A stretch of DNA of 64,000 nt from an uncultured virus (IMG/VR IMGVR_UViG_3300003324_000404) (taxonomy: Duplodnaviria > Heunggongvirae > Uroviricota > Caudoviricetes): IMG/VR virus record IMGVR_UViG_3300003324_000404. The stretch is one strand, 5' to 3'. A program made the translations under genes and the position numbers. Of this stretch, positions 5,912 to 48,169 are shown one piece after another. Below the pieces are notes generated by a model. That model searched no databases, was not told the origin of the DNA, and saw only the letters and a program-made list of their open reading frames with translations. The first letter of the stretch is position 1. Each line of letters starts with the position of its first letter.

Positions 5912-7348
5912 TCAGGCCGCGTGAAGTCCCCAGTAGGACTTTTGTGCTTGGATCAAAGTTTGTCTCAACGAGACGACGGCCATGATGCCGTTTTCGCCAG
6001 TCCAACCTGTGACATCGGCACCAAAGGTAAAGCCAGAACTAACAGGCCCTGTGAAGCCCTCCTGCACAGCCTGTCCTAGCATCATGTCATCTCCCGTTTG
6101 ACTATCTGTATAGCCTAACGTTCTTTGACCATTCGCCAAACCAGTTGCTGTTGGGCTAATGCTAGCCATAGCTGTACCAGCGTCAGATGGTCCTGTCACG
6201 TAATATGACAGCCCATCCTTATCTGTAGGCTGATTCGTCAAAGCACCTGTCGTGCCTGTGAATGTGCTTGAGCCAACCGTAGTATCAGTAGCCGACACAA
6301 CATAATCGGCATTAGCCGCAACTGAATCGGCCCAGGTATAGCCTTCTTGGGGCTTCCAGATCTGTTGACTCCATCCCCAAGAACTTGTTCCGGCACCCGG
6401 AGTTATTGTTGGATTTGTTTCAGAATCCGACGTCGCGACTTTCTCAAAGATGCAGAGCTTCATCGGTCCTGTATCCGCCCCAACAGCTCCAGTTCCCCCA
6501 GTTAGCGACTTGATCTTTGTCCAGCCGTTGTCCATCGTGGGATCAGAGGCTGTATCTGGCTTGACGCCGACCGCAATTCTCATGCGATCGCCGGTCTTGT
6601 GGGTAAGGAGTGTGGCTGTTTGTGCAGAGACCGCCAGATCTACTGGACCATCTCCAATGCTTCGACACGCAGCTCTGTCTCGAACAAGCGCCAGAAACGC
6701 AGATCGCGGGAAAGTACTTCCGGTCGTACCGCTTGTTGCAAATGTTGGATTCTGAGTTCCAGGCGCTACGCCTTCTGAATAGAAAACGCCCATGTTGGCC
6801 ACACCAGAAGCAGAGTTGTCCCAAGCTTTGCTGTAGCCAGTTTCAGCAGACCAAGCACCGGCATTTGTAGCATGATTACTGACAGAACCGACTATATCCA
6901 CCAAACGATCACTAGTGCTGAATGCTCCAGGACCAATGCCGGTAACGGCTGACGTGTTGGTGGAAACAAACGTCTTTGTCGTATGCGTTGGGTCAGTGGA
7001 GTTAGGAACTGCTCCAACCCGAACGATGTCCGAAAACGCTGTGGCTACAGCGTTGTACAACGCGCTTGTAGTCCACGAAATATCGTAATCGTTGTCGGGC
7101 TCGTCTGTCGCATCGTCATCGACTGTGATTCTCTTGACGGCCATGAGTTCGCGGCCACGTGTCGTTGCGTTGCTCGTTCCCGTATCGATCTTTTGAGTGA
7201 AACCGGTTGGCCAAGTGATTGTGGCATCTCCCGATTGCACATACAAAGAAAGAACTACGATGTCTCCGACCTTGAGATTTGCGGGTTTACCAGGAGCCGC
7301 AGCGGTTCCTGTTCCCGCGACGCCAGTTCCGACAGAACGAAACGTCAT
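5912..7348 (-). CDS. Minor tail / receptor-binding structural protein
   Basis: 478 aa, Thr/Gly/Ser-rich and beta-like, with two related sub-domains (GDIVVL..WPTGFT and GDRMRI..DNGWTKI). Translationally coupled to the collagen fibre gene. Confidence 0.65.
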   Translation of the reverse strand: MTFRSVGTGVAGTGTAAAPGKPANLKVGDIVVLSLYVQSGDATITWPTGFTQKIDTGTSNATTRGRELMAVKRITVDDDATDEPDNDYDISWTTSALYNAVATAFSDIVRVGAVPNSTDPTHTTKTFVSTNTSAVTGIGPGAFSTSDRLVDIVGSVSNHATNAGAWSAETGYSKAWDNSASGVANMGVFYSEGVAPGTQNPTFATSGTTGSTFPRSAFLALVRDRAACRSIGDGPVDLAVSAQTATLLTHKTGDRMRIAVGVKPDTASDPTMDNGWTKIKSLTGGTGAVGADTGPMKLCIFEKVATSDSETNPTITPGAGTSSWGWSQQIWKPQEGYTWADSVAANADYVVSATDTTVGSSTFTGTTGALTNQPTDKDGLSYYVTGPSDAGTAMASISPTATGLANGQRTLGYTDSQTGDDMMLGQAVQEGFTGPVSSGFTFGADVTGWTGENGIMAVVSLRQTLIQAQKSYWGLHAA

Positions 7349-8745
7349 GTCAGCTCCACGACAATCACGGCGTCGGTTCCCGGAGTGGTAGAACCGACAG
7401 AAACAACTTGGACCGTCAGTTCATCGCCAGCAGAGAGCGACGTGACATCGGGAGTCCCGCTGTCGTCCTTTGTTGTACCCGCAGCAACCGAAGCCCGGTT
7501 GCCTGTGGTAGTGAAGATCGTGGTGCCATTCTTGAGAATATCCACCACAACAGCAGATCCGGTTGGAGCTGTACCGATTCGAACCCAAACCTTCCCTATC
7601 GTGCACGCACGCGGAGCAACCCAAGCCTTGTTCGAATAGGTTGTTGCAGTAAGCGCGCCCTCGATAGTGAATGTCGCACTTCCGACACCCGCGGCTCCAG
7701 TCGACCCTGTAGACCCTGTTGAACCAGTAGGACCAACCAGAGAGGTCGGAGAACCCCAAGCTCCAGAAGTCTTTGGGCCGTAGATGGTGTTAGCAGAGGT
7801 GTTGATGTAGAAGTCGCCGTCGACCCCGAGCCCGCTGGATGGAGCGCCCGAGCCACTGCGTACTGTCTTTCCGTCTGCTCCCGCAGCTCCTGTAGATCCT
7901 GTTGCACCTGTCGAACCAGTCGCTCCCGTTGGGCCCACGAGCGATACCGGAGAACCCCACGAACCACTCGTCTTGGGTCCGTAGAGTTCGTTGGTGTCTG
8001 TCCGAATATAGAAGTCACCGTCAACCCCCAATCCCGAGGAAGGAACGGTCGTTCCATTCCGAACGGTTTTACCATCTGCGCCGGCCGGCCCAGTGGCTCC
8101 AGTAGCGCCATCGGCGCCATCGGCACCGTCAGCACCCGCAGGTCCCTGAGGACCAACCAAAGACACAGGAGAACCCCACGATCCGCTTGTTTTGGGACCA
8201 TAGAGCTCGTTTGTGGTCGTCCGAATATAGAAGTCCCCGTCTACGCCCAATCCTCCGGACGGAGCAGTTGTTCCGTTTCGGACAGTCTTTCCATCGGCTC
8301 CTGCTGCTCCAGCAGCGCCATCAGCTCCGGCAGCTCCTTGAGGACCGACAAGAGAGACGGGAGATCCCCAAGATCCTCCGGTTTTTGGTCCGTAGATCTC
8401 GTTGGTGTCGGTTCTGATGTAGAAATCGCCGTCGACACCGAGTCCCGATGAAGGGACACCAGTGCCATTACGTACAGTTTTCCCATCAGCTCCAGCCGGT
8501 CCAGTTGCTCCAGTCGCTCCCGTAGCTCCCGCGGGACCGGTAGCACCGGTAGGTCCCTGGGCACCGGTCGCCCCTGTTGGCCCCTGGGGGCCGGTAGCTC
8601 CTGTTGCACCTGTCGCTCCCTGAGGTCCAGTAGGACCTGCAGGTCCCCGAGCACCAACTGGTTGAAGATCGAGTTCGATCTGACCTTCGATGATGACGTC
8701 CAGCTCGATAGGAGGTTCGCCGGACTCAATGACGGTACTACTCAC
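7345..8745 (-). CDS. Collagen-like tail fibre protein
   Basis: Gly-X-Y runs interspersed with four repeats of GADGKTVR.G..PS.GLGVDGDFYI.T..N..YGPKT.G.WGSP.SLVGP. Confidence 0.85.
   Translation of the reverse strand: MSSTVIESGEPPIELDVIIEGQIELDLQPVGARGPAGPTGPQGATGATGATGPQGPTGATGAQGPTGATGPAGATGATGATGPAGADGKTVRNGTGVPSSGLGVDGDFYIRTDTNEIYGPKTGGSWGSPVSLVGPQGAAGADGAAGAAGADGKTVRNGTTAPSGGLGVDGDFYIRTTTNELYGPKTSGSWGSPVSLVGPQGPAGADGADGADGATGATGPAGADGKTVRNGTTVPSSGLGVDGDFYIRTDTNELYGPKTSGSWGSPVSLVGPTGATGSTGATGSTGAAGADGKTVRSGSGAPSSGLGVDGDFYINTSANTIYGPKTSGAWGSPTSLVGPTGSTGSTGSTGAAGVGSATFTIEGALTATTYSNKAWVAPRACTIGKVWVRIGTAPTGSAVVVDILKNGTTIFTTTGNRASVAAGTTKDDSGTPDVTSLSAGDELTVQVVSVGSTTPGTDAVIVVELT
7730..8490 (-). 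repeat. Four tandem coding repeats (about 150 bp each plus collagen spacers) in the fibre gene
   Basis: Repeated peptide units at roughly 8340-8490, 8150-8300, 7930-8080 and 7730-7880, with synonymous divergence. Confidence 0.9.
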
Positions 8746-17254: not shown

Positions 17255-17883
17255 TCAATCATCCTTCAGCGCAGCAAGGACATGGTTAGACCAATCCTCG
17301 AGATCGTCGTACGTTGATGCCACAGCTCGAGTTAAAGCTACAACCATATAGCGCATGTGTATGGCCGTGTAGTGATTTGTGGTATCAGAAACGAGAGCCA
17401 TAAGATGACCATTGTCGTCGCTTCCCGCTTCTCTAGCCATGATGGCTCTTGTAATCAAACTTCTACAGTCCTCAAGAACCTTCTGTTGCAGACCGTCCAT
17501 CACGCCTCCTTCGGCATGTTCTGATGTCCACGCAGATTGATAGTGTGGCCCGTACGCTTGTGATGAGCCAGCCCCTTCTTAGCGAGCTTGTCGAAACTTG
17601 TTCCCGACTCAAGGAAGTTTCCGCACGTACATTGAATCACGTGTCGCTTGTTGATACCTGGCTTGAACCAGATGTAGTCGTTATCTACGACCTCTTGCTC
17701 TTCAGGCGTAGATCCCTCGAGATAGATCCTCAGATCCTCAGTGGACATGTAGAAGAAGATGTCCCTGGTGAAGATCTCAGCAGTTTTCTGCAGCTCTTCC
17801 TCGTCGAAGTTGAAGATGTACAGCTTCTCATCATCGGGACTGTACCCATACACTTGAACCGAGTCTTCTAACACTTTCGCCAC
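17255..17883 (-). CDS. Two hypothetical proteins (17500-17883 and 17255-17503)
   Basis: Coupled ORFs with protein-like composition. The first has a CTCG..H..H Zn-like tail. Confidence 0.6.
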
Positions 17884-17894
17884 CTTACTAGCTC

Positions 17895-18120
17895 CGATAC
17901 GTAGTTTTTACGTATTGCCAAGATTTCTTGAAGAAAACTTTTTAAAAAACTCATTCCTAATACTTAACCTAAATTCCGCGCGTAGGGATAGGGTTTACGT
18001 ACTGGAAATGACATTTTAGAAAAGTTTTTCTACTAAAATCTTGGCAATTACGTATTTTGCCTAGACAGGTGAGAAACGGGCTCTTTTACGCGGTATACGT
18101 AAGCTGTATACGTACGTACA
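17895..18120. other. AT-rich inverted-repeat region, candidate replication origin
   Basis: Imperfect arms of about 40 bp at 17909-17947 and 18014-18054, multiple TACGTA hexamers, directly downstream of the helicase gene. Confidence 0.6.
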
Positions 18121-18147
18121 AGGCCCGTCACTCACCCGTCAATTCTG

Positions 18148-20604
18148 TCAAAACCCCATTTTTGCCCCGAATCGGGCCTCGTTGAAGCTCTTCTTGAGTC
18201 CCAGGCTCTTGGCCACGGCAAGGTCGATCACAGACTTCGAAATCAGCCTGTAATAGTGCAAATCCGAAAATGACGTACTCAATCTGTCAATTCTGCCGTG
18301 TGCCTGGTGCCAATTCTTGTATGAATAGGGCATTGAGTAGAACACCATGGCGTCAGTCGAAGTACACTCCCAGGCTTCCGCCCCGGCCACATATTGAACA
18401 AGGTAGACCCACGATGTGGTAGTGGGAACCTCCTCGTGCTTGTGTCCATTCCACTCCGCGACCTGAAACTGCGGCGTAGATCCAGAACTTTTGCCATGCG
18501 AGGAGAGGCCCGACGACTTCTTCGACGCGGTTGACAATGGCTTCGTACTCTTCGGCGACAGTCTGCCCGTGAGTAAGTCGGTACTTGTCTCGGTTTGCGA
18601 TGTATCGATCGCTGGCCTTGAGCTGTGTGAGGGATTCCCAGGCCCCGGTAGGTAGCGGCTCTTCTGGTGCTCCTTCTGACATTCGTTATCCTCCAAAGAT
18701 CTTTCTGAAGTTGCGGAGCTGGTCGTCGGTGAGTGCTCGAATGCGCTGCTCAACGCGTTCATTTGCGACGACATTGACTCCATCGATGTTGATGTTGTAC
18801 TTGTCTTTTCGTTCGATGAACGGTCGTCGTCCGGACAGATCTCCCCGCTCTCCCGCAACTCCCCTGGCGTTGACGTCCCGTCCCTGCTCGTCTTCGACGT
18901 AGTCGTACTCGGGCTTGTCGAGCTTGATGGGTTCTCCCACCTCTCCTCTGGAGGTCCCGCAGTGTGCACAGACGTCTCCGCCGGTTGCGATGACTTCCTT
19001 GTAGAAAAGGCAGTAGTGTTCCCAGATCCGTGGTCGAGACTCTCTGGGTCGGTCGTTTTCCGACGCCCCGCACTCTGCGCACGGTTGCCCGACTTTGAGA
19101 GTGATGAACTTGTTTGCGAGGGTCGGAATTCCAGGGCAGATGTGACTCCAGGTGTCTGGCGATCGCACCATTCCGTCTGGTCCGGGGATGAGTCCGAGCA
19201 CCTGCAGCTCGAGCCGGATGTGCTCGCTGAGTCCTCGTCGACTCCACTGCTGTGGTGTATCGGACCCTGGGTACTGTCCCTCCATTGATTCTCCTTCTCC
19301 GTATAGTGCTGAGCGCATTTCTCCGTCGAGCTCTTTGAACAGTTCCCATCGCATTGGGTCGGTAGGTGGACTGTTCCGCACATCTCGCAGAACCCGTCCT
19401 CCCAGATTGTCCCGACGAGGCCTGCGCGAGCCGCAACGTGGACATCCGAAGAGGACTTTGTAGACGTAGGTGTCTGAGTTCTTGACGCATCGGTGAATCC
19501 AGTGTCCGCTGTCGTCAATGTAGTCGGGTCCTGACCATTCCATGTGCGATGGTCTTTGTCGTTTCGAGTATGTTGTGCCGATGTAGAAAACTTCTGGGTG
19601 TGGTCCAGGATCGGCTCTGAATCGATAGTCGTTGGGATCGATGTCGAATTCTCCATCTGTAGATTCTTCAGGCCCTTTGTCAGCTTCTCTGAGGACGTTG
19701 AGTGGGAAGACAAACTCAGATCCGTCTTTTGCGAATCGATCGGGATCTCTAGGTCCTTCAGACCCTCCCTCAGAATCTCCAGCTCGAAGTCGAAATTGTA
19801 GAACACAATCAGTCTGGGATGTGTTTTCAATAGTGATCTGATTGCCTCTAAGCGTGACTCGTCCGAATAGACAATCTGTCTCATCACACGGAAGAGTTCC
19901 GACGCGTCCGTCAGCGGCCGCTTCTCTAGCACATGCCATCTCTTCGTCACCAGTTCCTTTACTGCGTTCTTGTCATAGTCAACCCAGATGTCGTGACTAT
20001 GCCTTGTAGTGTGCTTTTCGTACGGCATGTCCACCAGCAGTTGGTTACGCCAGCGGACAAGCTTTCCTACCTGTCGGTATCCGACGACCTTGTAGTACTT
20101 GCCCGTCCACTTCTGAACGACGTGATCGTCCTTGAAAGCTGTAAGATTCTTGATGAATCCGTTAGCCCTAAAGACGGGCACATAATCGAGCCAAGTGTCA
20201 CCCGGAGTTGCTGAAAGCATGATCCAGTGATTGTTTTCGGCAATCTTGTAAAATGCCTTAACCCAGGCACCACTTCCGACAAGTCTCTGCTCGTCGAAGA
20301 TGAAGAATGCATTCTTGATGTCCTTGTACTTGTCAATGTTATTCCAGGAGTCTACGGTTAGAAGAGCTCCCATGGTCGTCTTGGGATGTGGCGACATACC
20401 AATCTGGATGAAGATGTCTTGCCAGTCGTGCTTGTTGCGCTTTTTTGCGGTGGTGATGATCACTACATCCCGGGGTGCTTCGTTCTCGAGGTAGTAGCCA
20501 ACCGCAGTATGGCTTTTGCCGACGCCCACACCTCCTGCGAGGATGCAGCCGTTATGCATTTTCTTGACTGCTACCTCTTGGTGTGGCTTCAGCTCGAATG
20601 TCAA
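18148..20604 (-). CDS. SF2 (SNF2-like) DNA helicase with an approximately 425-aa Ser/Thr-rich insertion
   Basis: GGVGVGKS, IFDEQ, LSATPG and IVFYNF before the insert. AEWNGH, LVQY.AGAE and QAHGRIDR after it. Confidence 0.85.
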   Translation of the reverse strand: MTFELKPHQEVAVKKMHNGCILAGGVGVGKSHTAVGYYLENEAPRDVVIITTAKKRNKHDWQDIFIQIGMSPHPKTTMGALLTVDSWNNIDKYKDIKNAFFIFDEQRLVGSGAWVKAFYKIAENNHWIMLSATPGDTWLDYVPVFRANGFIKNLTAFKDDHVVQKWTGKYYKVVGYRQVGKLVRWRNQLLVDMPYEKHTTRHSHDIWVDYDKNAVKELVTKRWHVLEKRPLTDASELFRVMRQIVYSDESRLEAIRSLLKTHPRLIVFYNFDFELEILREGLKDLEIPIDSQKTDLSLSSHSTSSEKLTKGLKNLQMENSTSIPTTIDSEPILDHTQKFSTSAQHTRNDKDHRTWNGQDPTTLTTADTGFTDASRTQTPTSTKSSSDVHVAARAGLVGTIWEDGFCEMCGTVHLPTQCDGNCSKSSTEKCAQHYTEKENQWRDSTQGPIHHSSGVDEDSASTSGSSCRCSDSSPDQTEWCDRQTPGVTSALEFRPSQTSSSLSKSGNRAQSAGRRKTTDPESLDHGSGNTTAFSTRKSSQPAETSVHTAGPPEERWENPSSSTSPSTTTSKTSRDGTSTPGELRESGEICPDDDRSSNEKTSTTSTSMESMSSQMNALSSAFEHSPTTSSATSERSLEDNECQKEHQKSRYLPGPGNPSHSSRPAIDTSQTETSTDLLTGRLSPKSTKPLSTASKKSSGLSSHGKSSGSTPQFQVAEWNGHKHEEVPTTTSWVYLVQYVAGAEAWECTSTDAMVFYSMPYSYKNWHQAHGRIDRLSTSFSDLHYYRLISKSVIDLAVAKSLGLKKSFNEARFGAKMGF
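18353..18682 (-). CDS. Nested hypothetical protein inside the helicase gene (-1 frame)
   Basis: GGAGG-N7-ATG start and protein-like sequence MSEGAPEEPLPTGAWESL.. Confidence 0.65.
   Translation of the reverse strand: MSEGAPEEPLPTGAWESLTQLKASDRYIANRDKYRLTHGQTVAEEYEAIVNRVEEVVGPLLAWQKFWIYAAVSGRGVEWTQARGGSHYHIVGLPCSICGRGGSLGVYFD
18686..19939 (-). CDS. Nested Zn-finger (CxxC)-containing ORF inside the helicase gene, with a strong internal start at 19285
   Basis: Open -1 frame with CPRC, CAEC and CAHC. AAGGAGAATCAATG at 19285 gives a 199-aa product. The true 5' start is uncertain. Confidence 0.65.
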   Translation of the reverse strand: MACAREAAADGRVGTLPCDETDCLFGRVTLRGNQITIENTSQTDCVLQFRLRAGDSEGGSEGPRDPDRFAKDGSEFVFPLNVLREADKGPEESTDGEFDIDPNDYRFRADPGPHPEVFYIGTTYSKRQRPSHMEWSGPDYIDDSGHWIHRCVKNSDTYVYKVLFGCPRCGSRRPRRDNLGGRVLRDVRNSPPTDPMRWELFKELDGEMRSALYGEGESMEGQYPGSDTPQQWSRRGLSEHIRLELQVLGLIPGPDGMVRSPDTWSHICPGIPTLANKFITLKVGQPCAECGASENDRPRESRPRIWEHYCLFYKEVIATGGDVCAHCGTSRGEVGEPIKLDKPEYDYVEDEQGRDVNARGVAGERGDLSGRRPFIERKDKYNINIDGVNVVANERVEQRIRALTDDQLRNFRKIFGG

Positions 20605-20607
20605 GCG

Positions 20608-22377
20608 TTACTCCTTCTTAAGCTTTTCTGCTTCTCGTTCGTACTCTCGGTGCTCTCTACAACAATGCCCGTTACCGTCAGTCATGATCTTCAGACAGCT
20701 TGTGTCGGGGTTGAAAGTGCACTTGGTTCGTTCGAGCTTCAGTCGCTTGCACGCGTCGCAGTTGACCTGCTGTTCGAACCAAGCAAACCAATGGTCTTCT
20801 TGAGCGCGAGTATACTGACCACAGAGCGCATAGTCAGTGAAACTGGTTCCTTCGGGAGCTCTCTCCCAGTCCGGATAGTGGTAGGTTTTCTCCATCGCTA
20901 CTCGACACCCCTCATTTCCCTGTCAACAAGCCCAATCATCTCTTCCCAGAACCATTTATCTACCTCGGGGAAAGCTAGGTCTTTCAAATCGTCTTCGTCT
21001 ACGAGCTGCCACCACAAGTAATGGCCTTCCTTGTAGTAGACGTCGATTCGATAGACAACACACCGACACAAGTAGCAATCTTCTGTTTTCAGATTCTGAT
21101 CTAGCTCTTGGTCGTGTCCGTGGTTGTATGGTTTCTTTGATGCGTAGACATCCTCCCAGCGATGGTCGCGCTCCATCATAAGAAGTCATCTCTGTGATGG
21201 GGCATACCACACCAGCACGCATTTAGACTGTGGGCTAGTTTTCGCTTGTCCTCGTTTGGGTTGCCGAGTAGCCTGAGGCGAATGAACTCTTGGATGGAGG
21301 CTTCTGGTCCTAGCTCCATTTCAGCCATAGCTTGAAGGCGGTCTCGCTCACGAACGCTCAGTCGAAGACCGATCTGAACTTTCCGATGCCTGTTCTCCGT
21401 TCCTGGGTTCGCCATCAGGCTTCCGGCCCTTCAAGACTCATGTCCGGAGCAACGAAACCGTAATGACAGGCTTTACAGGCTCGCAAGACGTCTCGATCCC
21501 CATGAGGAACCCACCCAAGTTCGTGCTCGGATTTGGCGGTCAGTTGAAGAATCTCCTGATGTGGCGACGGAGATTCGTTGATCTCGAAAATGTTTCGCGG
21601 TTGAGGCTTGGGATGCGTCCATAAGAACAACCAAATGCCTATCCCACCGAAAACAAATAGAAGAACCGTTATCATGCTCTCTGATCTCTCATCTTAATAC
21701 CCTTTCTGTAGAGCTCTTCGCGTGTTGGTGGGCGAACTTCTCTTTTGAAAGGCGCCAACACTTTCCCATCGAATAACAAGACACCGTTTCGCTTCAGCTT
21801 GAATCGTTTCATGTTGACGTTGAAATGGCGGTGGTGCATAGAACCTGGATGTGGGGCGCACATACAAATCCATCCGTCGGACTGACTCGCCGCATGAACG
21901 CCGCAGTATCCAAGCTCTTTCATCTTCTTGCAGATGTTTATGTGTCGACGCTTTCTACGATCAGGCACGATCCATCTCGATCGCTAGAAGCACATTCGAA
22001 CGGGCTAGCAAGAGCGGGATGAGCACGTAGTTCCCTTCACGGTCTTGGAGCTGGTAGACGTTTGTTCCTTCTACCCATTCATCCTTTACTCTTTCGAAGT
22101 CTTTCTTGACCGCCTCGATCTGCCGGTCGATCTCGACCAGAGTTTTCCGCAGAATAGAGTCCAGCCCTGCTACCTTTCCCATGATGCTAAACATCTCCTT
22201 CTGAAATCCTACGGTGTAATCAATCGGTTTTCCGGGCTTTAAGATCGTGCCTTTCCAGTAGAGAAACGAAGCACTTGGAGAGTTCCACAATCCTCTACGC
22301 CAAAGCAAGATTTTAAGACGTCTCCTCATGCTTCTCCTTGTGGTGCTCTTTGGTCCAGCGATAGGCATTCCGGACAA
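20608..22377 (-). CDS. Run of six small hypothetical proteins, including an RHH-like protein at 21176-21415
   Basis: Tightly coupled ORFs 20608-20895, 20898-21179, 21176-21415, 21415-21675, 21672-21968 and 21961-approx. 22330. Confidence 0.55.
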
Positions 22378-41465: not shown

Positions 41466-42801
41466 CTAGCTCATCTCAAGAATGTACGACTCCATCTGGA
41501 ACCACAGCTCCACTTCTCGCTGATCTTCTTGAGGATGCTGAAGCGGGAACAACCCGCCGTTTCCGTCGTAGCTGTACTGCCTCCAGACCAACCTCTCAAT
41601 GATCTCTTCCACGCGGCCTGCGTGGTATCGTCTGTCGTTAAATCGTGTAAGGCCCAAGTTCCCGATCAGATGCCAGAACCACTCGCCCACCTCTCCTTCA
41701 GCCGTGAAAGAGAGATGGCGAGCGACTCCAATTAGCATCTCGAGTACCGAACACCCCAACTCCAACCAATGTTGGGTCGGATGGAGCATCGGTCCTGAAT
41801 GTAGAAACTCTTTTCGGAGAGCAATGCCGTCCGCACAACGATTGTCATCGTTTGGAACTAGCATCACGAACTCTCTCTCGAAGAGATGCTTCAACAAGCG
41901 GTTGTGTTCGACTCCCTGTTCTTGAGGCCCTACCTGTTCTTTCAGCCACTCCAGGTAGAGGGCGTCAAGTTGTTCAGTCATCGTTCAGGCGGAACTTCCT
42001 TGGTTGTGAGTGCTTGATGTGCGGCTCAGTGTCGTCGAACCCCATGACTTCATCGGCGTACTTACCGGTTGATCGCGTTACGCAGAGATCGAACGGCGGA
42101 TCGACCGTCTCGTTCCGGATGTAAATCACATGCTCATCTTCTGATCCGTAGCCGAAACGAAGAAGGTTGTCCTCGCCGACCACTCGGTTGACGTCTTGGA
42201 TGGGGTTGTACTCCTCCTGGTCGTCGACCAGAACGGAATCACCCTCGTACCAAGTGAACGCTCTCTGCTCGTGATCCGGCTCGTTCTCGTAGTACTCGAC
42301 CTTGGTGATGATGTAGGGCTCCGAAGGATCTCGATCTGCCAAGAGCGCAGACAGGACCTCTTCGCCAGGAGGCTGGTACTCCGCGAAGGTGTTTCGAACC
42401 GTCACTTCACGCTTCTCAGTGACTTCCATCTCCTCCACAGGAGCAACGTAGGTGCCCATGGCCTGCATAGCCTTGGTCATGATGCGCTCCTGGGCTACCT
42501 CAGACAATTCATCCCAGGTGCCAGGAGGTGCCTCCTGACTTTCGTCGACCAAAGGCACCATTTCGGTACCATCATTCTCAGTCTTCTCCTCAGAGATAAC
42601 CAATGGCGACCTGTGATAGAGCTTCTGGTAGTAGATCCGAGCTTCGGCGATCTCCTCGTCCGCGATTGCTCGGAACTTCTTCTCTAGTACCTTGAGGGCC
42701 ACCAAATATCCGGCTCCTGCTCCTAGCGCCGCGGCAACCGTCAGCGCAGAAGGAACAAGAAGCTTGACATTGATGGTCTCCATCTTCACGAGGGACTTCA
42801 T
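41466..42801 (-). CDS. Two conserved hypothetical proteins (41974-42801 and 41466-41981)
   Basis: DDNRCADG..SVLEML..GGLFPL..ELWFQM. EPYIITK.EY..RFG..YIRN. Coupled to the polymerase gene. Confidence 0.7.
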
Positions 42802-43676
42802 CGGTTCATCAAGCCATCGTCGAGCATGTGGTAAACGAGCCCGGCGACGTTGAAGTCGAGCATGAGCGCCCGCTGCGAGTTGTAGACTTCGGTGAACTTG
42901 ATTTCCACGAAGTCGTCACTATTGTCGGAGGGGATGATCCATCCCACGAGCTGCCCGTGCTGCGTCACCGGAAGATCGAACTGCCGATAGACATCATTCA
43001 AGAACAAATATCCATCGGCGCGAAGCTTGTCCGTGAGATGCTGCTCGGTGATCTTGATGAGACTGACGTTGTACTCGTGACTGGGCTGGAAGACACTACT
43101 GCGCTCGTCCCAGATCACGGCGTATGGACCCATCTCGGTGGGTCTCGACGCCTGGACCTTCTTGTGTCCCTTGTCGGTCTCCTCGATCAGCTCAATGGGA
43201 GTCGAAGCATGGTAAAGATCCTTCTCCCTGGCCTCCCCGACCTCCTTGCGAACTCGAGCACGATATCCATCCAGAAACTGCTGGAGTGAGACGTATGCTC
43301 CGGTCAGGGCAGCGTTTCGCTGAGTGAGCTGACGATGGGACTTGGTGAGGCAGTAGATCGAAACTGCACCAACAGCGATCGCCGGCGCATAGAGCTTGGT
43401 CACCTCCAGCGCGCCGTTCACCATGATGTGGGCCCTCTGCTGACGAGCTTCCTCGTGAGCCATGCCCCTACGAGATTCGACCACGTCGACGTCGATGAGG
43501 TCCTTCTTCATGTGATCCACAACGGGCTGCGACTTGATCGTGGCACGGCAAGCCAGCACGGTAGCCGTGACGGCACCAGTGACGCCGGCGACGAAGAGAA
43601 TCGTCGGCGAGTTCTTCTGAGTCTTGAGGACGGCCCGGCCTACTGCTCGACTAACCGTCTTCGGAACGTACTTCAT
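42798..43676 (-). CDS. DUF6353-like membrane-anchored protein
   Basis: NSPTIL..G..A.RAT..KLYAPA..RNAAL..YR.RV..GYLFLNDVY..GW..LDFNV.G. Confidence 0.7.
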   Translation of the reverse strand: MKYVPKTVSRAVGRAVLKTQKNSPTILFVAGVTGAVTATVLACRATIKSQPVVDHMKKDLIDVDVVESRRGMAHEEARQQRAHIMVNGALEVTKLYAPAIAVGAVSIYCLTKSHRQLTQRNAALTGAYVSLQQFLDGYRARVRKEVGEAREKDLYHASTPIELIEETDKGHKKVQASRPTEMGPYAVIWDERSSVFQPSHEYNVSLIKITEQHLTDKLRADGYLFLNDVYRQFDLPVTQHGQLVGWIIPSDNSDDFVEIKFTEVYNSQRALMLDFNVAGLVYHMLDDGLMNR

Positions 43677-46553: not shown

Positions 46554-47315
46554 TCAGAAATCCGGCACCGGGTCCTTCGTGAAGTCGATCAACGTCACCG
46601 CAGTTCCGTTATCGAGCAGCACCGGCGTGAGCACCAGATCACACTGAGTTCCCGATCGCCACCCGAGGATGTTCCCGATGCTCGTGTTCTCGAGTCCGAG
46701 CTCGTCGTAAAACGTGTTGAGGGACGTTCCACGTTGATTGTTGGCCTCGAAATTGACGAAATTCATGGCCCTCTTGACCTCCTCCTGTGTTGACAGGAAG
46801 ACCTTGTTGGTCGTGGCGTCCTTGAACCATGACTTCCCCTCCGGAGTGATGTATCCGGCGGGCAGATCGCTCTCCTTGATCTTCTTCTTGGCGATGTCGT
46901 GGTTGATCTCGTCCATCTTCTTGAGCCCAAGCTGCTCGGCAGCCTTGTCGCGGAACTCATCGAAGTCTCCGGAGAGAACTCCGTATGCTGCGGCCAGTGC
47001 GGCGAGCCGCCGAGCCTGAACTCGGTTCGCAGCCACGATGCAGACGACCGTCATTACCCCGGTCGTTGCAGCAGGCACGTAGTACTTCCACGTCTTCTCG
47101 ATCACGGCCTTGCGGGTGAACTCGAATGTCTGGTTTCCGCTCTCGACCTTGGCGACGATCTCTTCGTGCTGGATCTGTCGTGCGGCCTTCCATGTTGCCT
47201 TGACGGTGAGGTAGGTGGTGACGCCGATCCCGGCAACACCCAGAACCGTGAGAATCTGTGGCGATTCCTTGGCTACGAACTTCCCCACGTCCTTGGTGAT
47301 GTGCTTGAGATTCAC
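46554..47315 (-). CDS. DUF6353-like protein (paralog of 42798-43676)
   Basis: ESPQILT..G..KAT..KYYVPA..RLAALAAAY..SLN.FY..LGL..LGW. GTG start behind GAGG. Confidence 0.7.
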   Translation of the reverse strand: MNLKHITKDVGKFVAKESPQILTVLGVAGIGVTTYLTVKATWKAARQIQHEEIVAKVESGNQTFEFTRKAVIEKTWKYYVPAATTGVMTVVCIVAANRVQARRLAALAAAYGVLSGDFDEFRDKAAEQLGLKKMDEINHDIAKKKIKESDLPAGYITPEGKSWFKDATTNKVFLSTQEEVKRAMNFVNFEANNQRGTSLNTFYDELGLENTSIGNILGWRSGTQCDLVLTPVLLDNGTAVTLIDFTKDPVPDF

Positions 47316-48169
47316 TGGTAATCCTCTTCTTCTCTGAAGTCCTGCACAAACTGGCGAACCTTGGGGTAGGCCAGCGTTCCGATCGCGATCCACTGAAGGA
47401 TCTCATTGATGAGTTCAATCACCTTCTTGCCTTTCGCATCTCCCTGACAAATATCCAGATGAGCCAAACCGGGAAGCCGCCAAAGATGGCGGCTGTGATC
47501 AAGCACATGAAGACGTCGAACAGAAACGCGAGACACCCATACTGCTTGGGTGCTTGCTCGATGAAGATGTACTTGGTCATCAGAGATCAGCCACCGCTTG
47601 CTTGAACGAGTTGATTCGGCCTTCGACCGTCTGGACAGTGTCGGCAACCATCGTCTGGGCTCGCTTGGCTCCGACAAGGATGACCACAAGCGTGGTCGTG
47701 GAAACTACCAAGCTGGTAGTTGCGATGATGAGAGTTGCGAGTTGCATCATGACTCCTGTGGAATTGAGAACTTCTTGACATACCAGGCATACGAAGCGTC
47801 GTACGTGCGCTTCGCCAGAGTTCCGTCCGGGTAACGGGCGAGGAACTTTACAAGAGGCGAGCTCGGAATTGTTCGCCCGGCTTCGTCTTCCTGGAATCGA
47901 GGCTCGATTTCCACTCGAACTACCTCGCACCACCGGTTGCACTCCAAGATGCGCTTCCGGTCGTACTTGTTGTCGAACCCGTCAATGTCGGCCTTCATGA
48001 GGGACGACTCAACTAGCACAATCATTCCCGGCCTGAGCTCCGTTCCGTCGAACAACAGGTCGTCGTCCTCGGGGTTCATGACGTAATCGCGATCAACAAA
48101 GAGGGACTGCATGTCTTGCTCGTTCATGTTGGGATCTCCTTAGCTCTTCTAGCATGGACAGAAATATAA

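Follow-up and report, generated by a model that had tools for sequence, protein, structure and literature searches.

The window, a 64,000-nucleotide (nt) stretch of DNA from an uncultured virus (IMG/VR IMGVR_UViG_3300003324_000404), carries on its minus strand, at 18148..20604, a DNA helicase gene of superfamily 2 (SF2) that is a single open frame of 818 codons with a TTG start. Included in this frame is a Ser/Thr-rich insert of 427 codons (18469..19749, minus strand), which interrupts the second RecA domain (RecA2) and carries candidate small genes in the -1 frame. The original prediction of a helicase gene kept open across an insert of about 1.28 kb was thus borne out. We consider it likely that the helicase is read straight through the insert, and that the nested genes are translated from the same mRNA in the manner of an operon. 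We also favor, with less assurance, a broader reading, in which this RecA2 loop is an exchangeable intragenic operon across a large phage lineage, with up to six -1 genes, loops of up to ~650 residues, a hidden start in the host gene, in-frame turnover at junction repeats, and a full-length host enzyme that gains loop motifs.

The helicase open reading frame (ORF) matches phrog_62 (E 1.7e-55), and the AlphaFold core and Foldseek searches support an XPB / SWI2-SNF2-like fold, XPB and SWI2/SNF2 ATPases being the best Foldseek matches. Its N-half (19750..20604, minus strand; residues 1–285) comprises RecA1 and the start of RecA2, and aligns with cultured-phage helicases of ~385–400 amino acids (aa). 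Helicase-like sequence breaks off at ~19750 and picks up at FQVAEW (18468), from which point sequence and alignment identify the remainder of RecA2 with the QAHGRIDR motif (C-half, 18148..18468, minus strand; 106 residues). Walker A (GKS), Walker B (FDEQR), motif III (SATP) and motif VI (QAHGRIDR) are intact across the two RecA domains, and all four are kept in an alignment of 82 sequences. The gene neighbors an HNH endonuclease, an exonuclease and an RNA-polymerase-like gene (phrog_4291). Such a gene block is described for the AM/AU/AW/BI/CC/DJ/EL actinophage supercluster, and the same helicase with HNH, exonuclease and RNA-polymerase-like neighbors occurs there and in Lactococcus 1706-like phages (10.1101/842583, from the portion of the text available; phrog_62). 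Fold motifs and gene block both fit, and the window helicase is the SF2 helicase of AU/BI/DJ-like phages (phrog_62). Its conservation suggests that it is essential.

The insert lies in a RecA2 loop between helix 272–283 and strand 713–718, and the FY-to-W span is 450 codons in the window vs 22 in typical relatives. AlphaFold produced a confident two-RecA core, with 316 residues at a predicted local distance difference test score (pLDDT) ≥90, and an unstructured insert with pLDDT <50 over residues 292–400 and 423–707, so that the loop is predicted to be disordered. In an alignment to a solved SNF2-family protein, motif IV is followed by a helix and then by the turn to which the insert site corresponds. 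Helix-to-strand loops in the RecA-type helicase fold point away from the ATP cleft.

The open helicase frame of the window insert exceeds chance. The corresponding shadow frame of 21 reference genes from the window contains 233 stops in 6084 codons. Synonymous resampling of the insert with the nested proteins fixed gave 9.3 expected stops, against none observed (exact P 8.3e-6); the model is not inflated, because it under-predicts the stops of the reference genes (207 vs 233 actual). Shuffling of the insert's own codons, a control suggested in the original prediction, lowered the expected stops to 4, and the frame was stop-free in 6/500 trials when order was shuffled and in 2/500 with synonymous shuffling. 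As for the earlier remark that shadow frames elsewhere are mostly much shorter, the longest comparable shadow in other long ORFs of the scanned region is 201 codons. NTA and NTG codons, from which helicase-frame stops would arise, make up 17/432 codons of the nested frame in the window insert vs 9.2% in the reference genes, and the codon after the ATG starts with A in 0/21 nested genes vs 33/88 flanking genes (P 3e-4, with homologous genes counted repeatedly). A scan for further long Ser/Thr-rich open shadows gave only chance-sized ones, and no second host gene.

Chimeric assembly, which had been raised as a possible objection, was checked against contigs from the runs containing window DNA, which are root metagenomes of one study. 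A Logan contig from run X1, perhaps the source data itself, spans 17800–20585 with 0 differences, and short contigs of sister samples X2 and X3 cross the insert junctions. No insert-skipping joint was found among the matches listed. These contigs, together with relatives of the same design, indicate that the insert is not a chimera as far as testable.

Long inserts proved to be widespread among relatives. A protein search limited to 449–1432 aa, which detects open frames only, found 1258 long-helicase protein clusters. Among 121 proteins examined, 118 were measurable, and 108 of these have 57–646 residues between anchors that are normally 7 apart. DNA loci were fetched as well, in part by C-half patterns, which are able to catch split genes too. 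Alignment of these relatives for insert length and frame, a comparison that had been proposed, gave a uniform result: in all 214 measurable loci (out of 230) the span divides by 3 and the helicase frame has 0 stops. The 16 unmeasured loci comprise 5 without an anchor and 11 that lack one half or are chance matches; 8 of the 11 are helicase pieces ended by sequence ends and open throughout, and L210, L218 and L227 were rejected as helicases, being chance pattern matches. Eighteen distinct DNA loci span 40–556 codons with mostly different content, and spans in relatives reach 661. Loci L003 and L083, with helicases 80% identical to that of the window, carry longer and mostly different inserts containing six and four -1 ORFs, respectively.

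In a tree of 249 helicase cores, the window is one of 28 members of a clade (support 0.993) in which all carry inserts. Across the tree, tips with inserts are interspersed with short-linker ones, requiring 16 parsimony changes (midpoint root, sampling biased to long proteins), a number that fits repeated gain and loss and does not demonstrate homing. Scans with the window's last module and with protein P0017 gave no further insert loci, and 49-aa proteins that clustered with P0015 were unrelated. At L188, directly upstream of the C-half motif, the same loop holds an in-frame, ordinary-looking domain and not a Ser/Thr shadow, and an N-terminal extension seen in several relatives is Pfam PF10686. 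L234, a 2.9-kb contig with the helicase and a nested zinc-finger-like gene, was found in an archaeal metagenome-assembled genome; it is probably a mis-binned phage fragment and gives no clue to the host.

The -1 frame of the window is open from 19972 to a TAA at 18688–18686, followed by an ATG restart at 18682 and a stop at 18355–18353. The most upstream putative start is an ATG at 19939 preceded by a GGTGA Shine–Dalgarno (SD) sequence (19951–19947; SD -7.2); this element (19939..19951, minus strand) coincides with the Arg-Trp codons of the helicase, 55 codons upstream of the insert. The first -1 ORF (18686..19939, minus strand; 417 codons) would consist of a leader over the helicase N-half followed by a patchwork of modules, and belongs to no Pfam or PHROG family. 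Within it, an internal AAGGAG-ATG at 19285 opens a probable nested gene of 199 codons (18686..19285, minus strand), modules of which recur reshuffled in the inserts of relatives. The last nested gene (18353..18682, minus strand) encodes 109 aa, with a helical N-part and a C-terminal HYH..CxxC, and is conserved at the same place in the clade. SD pairing is strong at both ATG 19285 and ATG 18682 (-9.3 kcal/mol each). The protein-like -1 frame with this internal start, TAA and restart, as originally described, was supported by SD pairing and by the selection described below.

Ten aligned copies of the last nested gene were found, with Cys and His invariant. Among 1.84 billion representatives, its protein matched 3 clusters at E <1e-10; a model with three helices was obtained at modest confidence, and no fold match was found. 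Searches of Pfam, PHROG, Atlas and viral folds gave no match for the nested proteins, Pfam and PHROGs at E 0.05 gave no nuclease family for any of 35 nested ORFs, and tblastn against cultured phages gave no match for the window's first nested region or for a free zinc-finger-like gene in L023. The last gene extends ~38 codons into the helicase C-half. In this overlap (window 18353–18468), the helicases of the clade read TTTSWVYL..AEAWEC vs the DRWVYL..EGWNC usual in the family, and the change is apparently co-adapted to the nested HYH..CxxC.

Substitutions were counted by codon position. In a 768-nt insert block compared between L003 and L083, there are 16/38/19 differences at -1 codon positions 2/3/1, and the window's last gene compared with L003 gave 13/28/14. 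In single-coding helicase sequence, 61% of differences fall at helicase third positions. The excess at -1 third positions indicates selection in the -1 frame over most of the insert.

Two short motifs inside the inserts show the opposite pattern. PWxYLLSPEG, found in the inserts of 17/118 measured proteins, has 6/8 variable columns at helicase third positions in five loci, and accounts for most of P0144's minimal insert. A similar helicase-frame pattern was found for QDRWGNTH in three loci. In the window itself, the helicase frame of the insert contains GLVGTIWEDGFCxxCG..H (19351..19422, minus strand), which is common to P0002 and P0003 and is modeled at pLDDT 54–57 over residues 401–420. Comparison of these three proteins points to selection of this motif in the helicase frame, and it is possibly a small zinc-binding element. 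The description of the insert as off-frame sequence does not hold for all of it. Selection in that frame in mid-insert would mean that ribosomes read it, so the insert is probably translated as part of the helicase, and some loop segments appear to have gained a function there (PWxYLLSPEG in the clade). Judged from these comparisons, both the helicase frame and the -1 frame of the insert are under selection.

The arrangement of the nested ORFs suggests how they would be reached. Across 14 inserts, 21/22 internal -1 stops have an in-frame ATG within two codons, and at most of these stop-ATG junctions SD pairing is located in the end of the preceding ORF. A stop-ATG junction with SD in the preceding ORF is the pattern of translational coupling. 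The first nested ORF usually has no start inside the insert, and the -1 frame is open back to the ATG at the upstream helicase Arg-Trp codons. This ATG with an open -1 frame was found in 12/13 insert loci vs 12/63 short-linker loci at ≥53% identity (Fisher P 9e-7) and in 12/119 short-linker loci overall; SD pairing at it is stronger in insert loci (P 0.001). We rejected the leader as a conserved protein, since its -1 amino acids are not conserved. As it is not conserved as a protein, it probably delivers ribosomes to the nested genes; it may have arisen before insert gain, since some short-linker relatives also have it. The helicase N-half could also be joined to the first nested ORF by a -1 frameshift; this is unneeded, as the upstream SD-ATG (19939) accounts for the frame.

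Named modules were traced to free copies; a comparison of stops inside and outside inserts was left unused, as weak matches to RNA polymerase dominate it. In L200 and L224, the module that ends the window's first -1 ORF stands alone as a gene upstream of the helicase; the L200 copy has a stop in the shadow frame. For part of one L003 nested gene, that genome also contains a free copy, in which 28 codons include two shadow-frame stops. A zinc-finger-like gene with TCxH..CxSC is free in L023, which has a short linker, and nested in L168, L203, L206, L212, L213, L223 and L234. Separately, a short motif in the -1 frame of the L202 insert, also in L198 and P0123, resembles the N-terminus of the RNA-polymerase-like protein (RxxGRYPWGSG), and suggests either a captured piece of that gene or a shared targeting signal.

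The near-identical helicase cores of proteins P0008 and P0010 go with a length difference of 72 residues, bounded by two junction repeats; relative to P0008, 34 residues between two PWDYL repeats are missing from P0270 and P0271. L198 contains direct repeats 216 and 102 nt apart, matching the 72- and 34-residue differences. We infer that whole genes are gained or lost when repeats in the same frame recombine, with both frames left intact. The window has one stop-ATG junction and no repeat pair of the L198 type. With 18 distinct loci, codon avoidance, -1 selection and free module copies in hand, the earlier proposal that small genes have accumulated inside the helicase while its frame was kept open is supported.

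We propose the following model. The helicase would be translated straight across the insert, giving a single polypeptide whose long disordered loop lies on the RecA2 surface. The same mRNA would be read in the -1 frame from the SD-ATG at 19939 within the helicase N-half into the loop region, and ribosomes would be passed to the small genes through stop-(0–2 codons)-ATG junctions or internal SD-ATG sites (19285, 18682). Small phage genes or gene pieces may land in the loop and then shed helicase-frame stops, and guests may be gained or lost by recombination at short in-frame junction repeats, a mechanism suggested by the observed length differences. The loop could act as such a landing site because any length is tolerated and the -1 geometry bars only NTA-R and NTG-A. 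The model goes beyond the sequence patterns in proposing that both frames are translated, that the leader has the role given and that the helicase is active with its loop.

A number of results weigh against this model. None of 120 cultured-phage rows inspected, out of 265 records matching the helicase, has an insert; full-length matches are ~1.1–1.2 kb, and no record covers 80% of the query. P0143, a clade member known from one sequence on one contig, exits the helicase frame within the insert and lacks the C-half. It has two frame shifts within ~25 codons, as expected from indel errors, and could be either an error or a real split gene. P0185, on a 1375-nt contig, also lacks the C-half. The window insert contains neither PWxYLLSPEG nor QDRWGNTH, the 12/13 figure for the upstream start ignores kinship, and the leader lacks conservation as a protein. 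Stop-free shadows of 150–275 codons arise by chance in these genomes, inserts below ~130 codons are not significant alone (P 0.04–0.29), and the inserts are partly homologous, so their individual P values cannot be multiplied.

Among the alternatives, the whole frame could be translated and the loop then excised or nicked by a protease, giving a two-chain helicase in which the loop motifs are docking or cleavage signals. Long disordered loops are sensitive to proteases, and such processing would account equally well for the open frame; a helicase-frame motif (PWxYLLSPEG) is conserved in inserts. Against it, conservation at the insert ends does not extend past the helicase itself, the motif is absent from the window and from 101/118 proteins, and no intein family was detected by Pfam in P0001, P0003 and P0013. 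These scans, with the variable ends and predicted lack of structure of the insert, uphold the earlier statement that intein ends are absent, and we regard proteolytic removal as unlikely. A reading in which a disordered helicase loop merely expands, and the -1 ORFs are captured, unexpressed relics, would suit the fragment patchwork of the first -1 ORF, including the RNA polymerase N-terminus-like piece in L202; the nested proteins belong to no family, and the case for their expression is drawn from sequence. It is very unlikely in view of the concentration of substitutions at -1 third positions, the SD-ATG after 21/22 internal stops, and the retention of the last gene in 10 loci with its Cys and His invariant.

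The original prediction had listed a disordered loop, ribosomal bypassing, splicing and proteolysis as possible outcomes; the loop is now favored, and bypassing and splicing are disfavored. If the insert were skipped by intron splicing or by bypassing like that of T4 gene 60, the open frame would be a by-product of codon usage. Owing to the C-ending codons of the nested genes, this is indeed the shadow frame most easily kept open, and own-codon shuffles cut the expected stops to 4 in the window. Bypassing of the gene 60 type involves a stop right after take-off, matched take-off and landing codons, and a conserved stem-loop; the insert has no helicase-frame stop and no matching end sequences. 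Nor were shared end sequences or long inverted repeats found at the insert ends, and searches of curated Rfam families gave no match, to group I/II introns or otherwise, at gathering score in 9 loci or at E 1 in window 18000–20700. Skipping is highly improbable, because neither mechanism needs an open in-phase frame, whereas measurable spans are all multiples of 3 with 0 stops, codon avoidance is specific to the insert, and a motif inside it is conserved by selection in the helicase frame. A selfish homing element, or an assembly artefact, seems scarcely credible. Homing would be in line with a geometry like that of the out-of-frame HNH element ShiLan (PMC11855218, available in part) and with the scattered distribution on the helicase tree, but no nuclease family was found among the 35 nested ORFs and content varies between relatives; independent assemblies and relatives agree, against an artefact. 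A search of the coding strand within the insert for sigma-70 promoters and terminators found none.

ShiLan is the closest described system: in actinophage methylases, an insert that leaves the frame open encodes a single HNH endonuclease out of frame. The parallels in the portion of that report available include the absence of a host-frame stop, a third-frame protein, a low-confidence loop, no intein or intron features and actinophage-type genomes. ShiLan itself consists of one homing endonuclease of 195 aa, has no ribosome-binding site and sits in a dispensable gene. In contrast, the helicase belongs to a conserved replication block, and its insert holds internal stops and as many as six consecutive ORFs with SD sites, encodes no endonuclease, varies in content and length with repeat-bounded gain and loss, and has an upstream -1 start in the host gene. 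With no endonuclease and no single conserved element, the helicase insert is not a member of the ShiLan family, and resembles ShiLan, or the overlap in the spacer of hepatitis B virus (HBV), in its working.

As in the polymerase spacer/pre-S overlap of HBV and the apple stem grooving virus (ASGV) linker/movement protein overlap, a variable linker of a replication protein shadows another gene under asymmetric selection (PMC8227390, in the part available). The two overlaps described there are fixed and single, lie between or link domains, and occur in small eukaryotic viruses, unlike the polycistronic, exchangeable array inside one RecA domain of a double-stranded DNA phage helicase. The features of a nested gene in a disordered linker were found here, with both frames apparently selected and the host segment predicted to be disordered.

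The insert shares with inteins carrying out-of-frame endonucleases an alternative-frame gene within an in-frame insert (10.1101/2025.01.02.630785 and 10.64898/2026.09.14.751524, both in part), but lacks a splicing domain and conserved splice residues. T4 gene 60 bypass inserts (10.1101/2022.08.31.505936) and the fractured genes of split inteins (PMC2677866), as far as described in the portions available, likewise interrupt a replication gene with foreign sequence; these break or skip the host frame, whereas the helicase insert keeps it open and in phase. The inspected cultured supercluster members have a short linker, and the available parts of 10.1101/842583, 10.1101/2025.01.02.630785 and PMC13313380 do not mention a helicase insert. 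Full-text literature searches, with most subscription journals and supplements outside their coverage, found no description of this insert or of a polycistronic variable nested array.

If the model is correct, gene overlap becomes a dynamic site of gene acquisition rather than a fixed curiosity. The natural series of loci with linker only, leader only, one guest and six guests would allow the recoding speed of guests to be measured, and would show the rise of helicase-frame motifs from shadow sequence and the tolerance of an enzyme for a loop longer than itself. The origin of an overlap by insertion, argued for the HBV spacer, becomes directly testable here because cultured relatives with an empty loop exist. 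In many metagenomic phages of this group, one of the two, helicase or nested genes, would escape gene callers, and the loop is suggested as a site for nesting cargo in laboratory phage genomes.

Elsewhere in the window, a primase-polymerase gene and a tape measure gene are present. The region 3′ of the helicase (17900–18140) is AT-rich and non-coding with repeated TACGTA-type words, and a like stretch occurs in L003 and L083; it is possibly a promoter or origin region. Two copies of phrog_2152, to which no function is assigned, lie at 42798–43676 and 46554–47393. Two long Gly/Thr-rich ORFs at 5912–8745 (minus strand), one of them collagen-like with DGDFYIRT repeat units, probably encode tail fibres.

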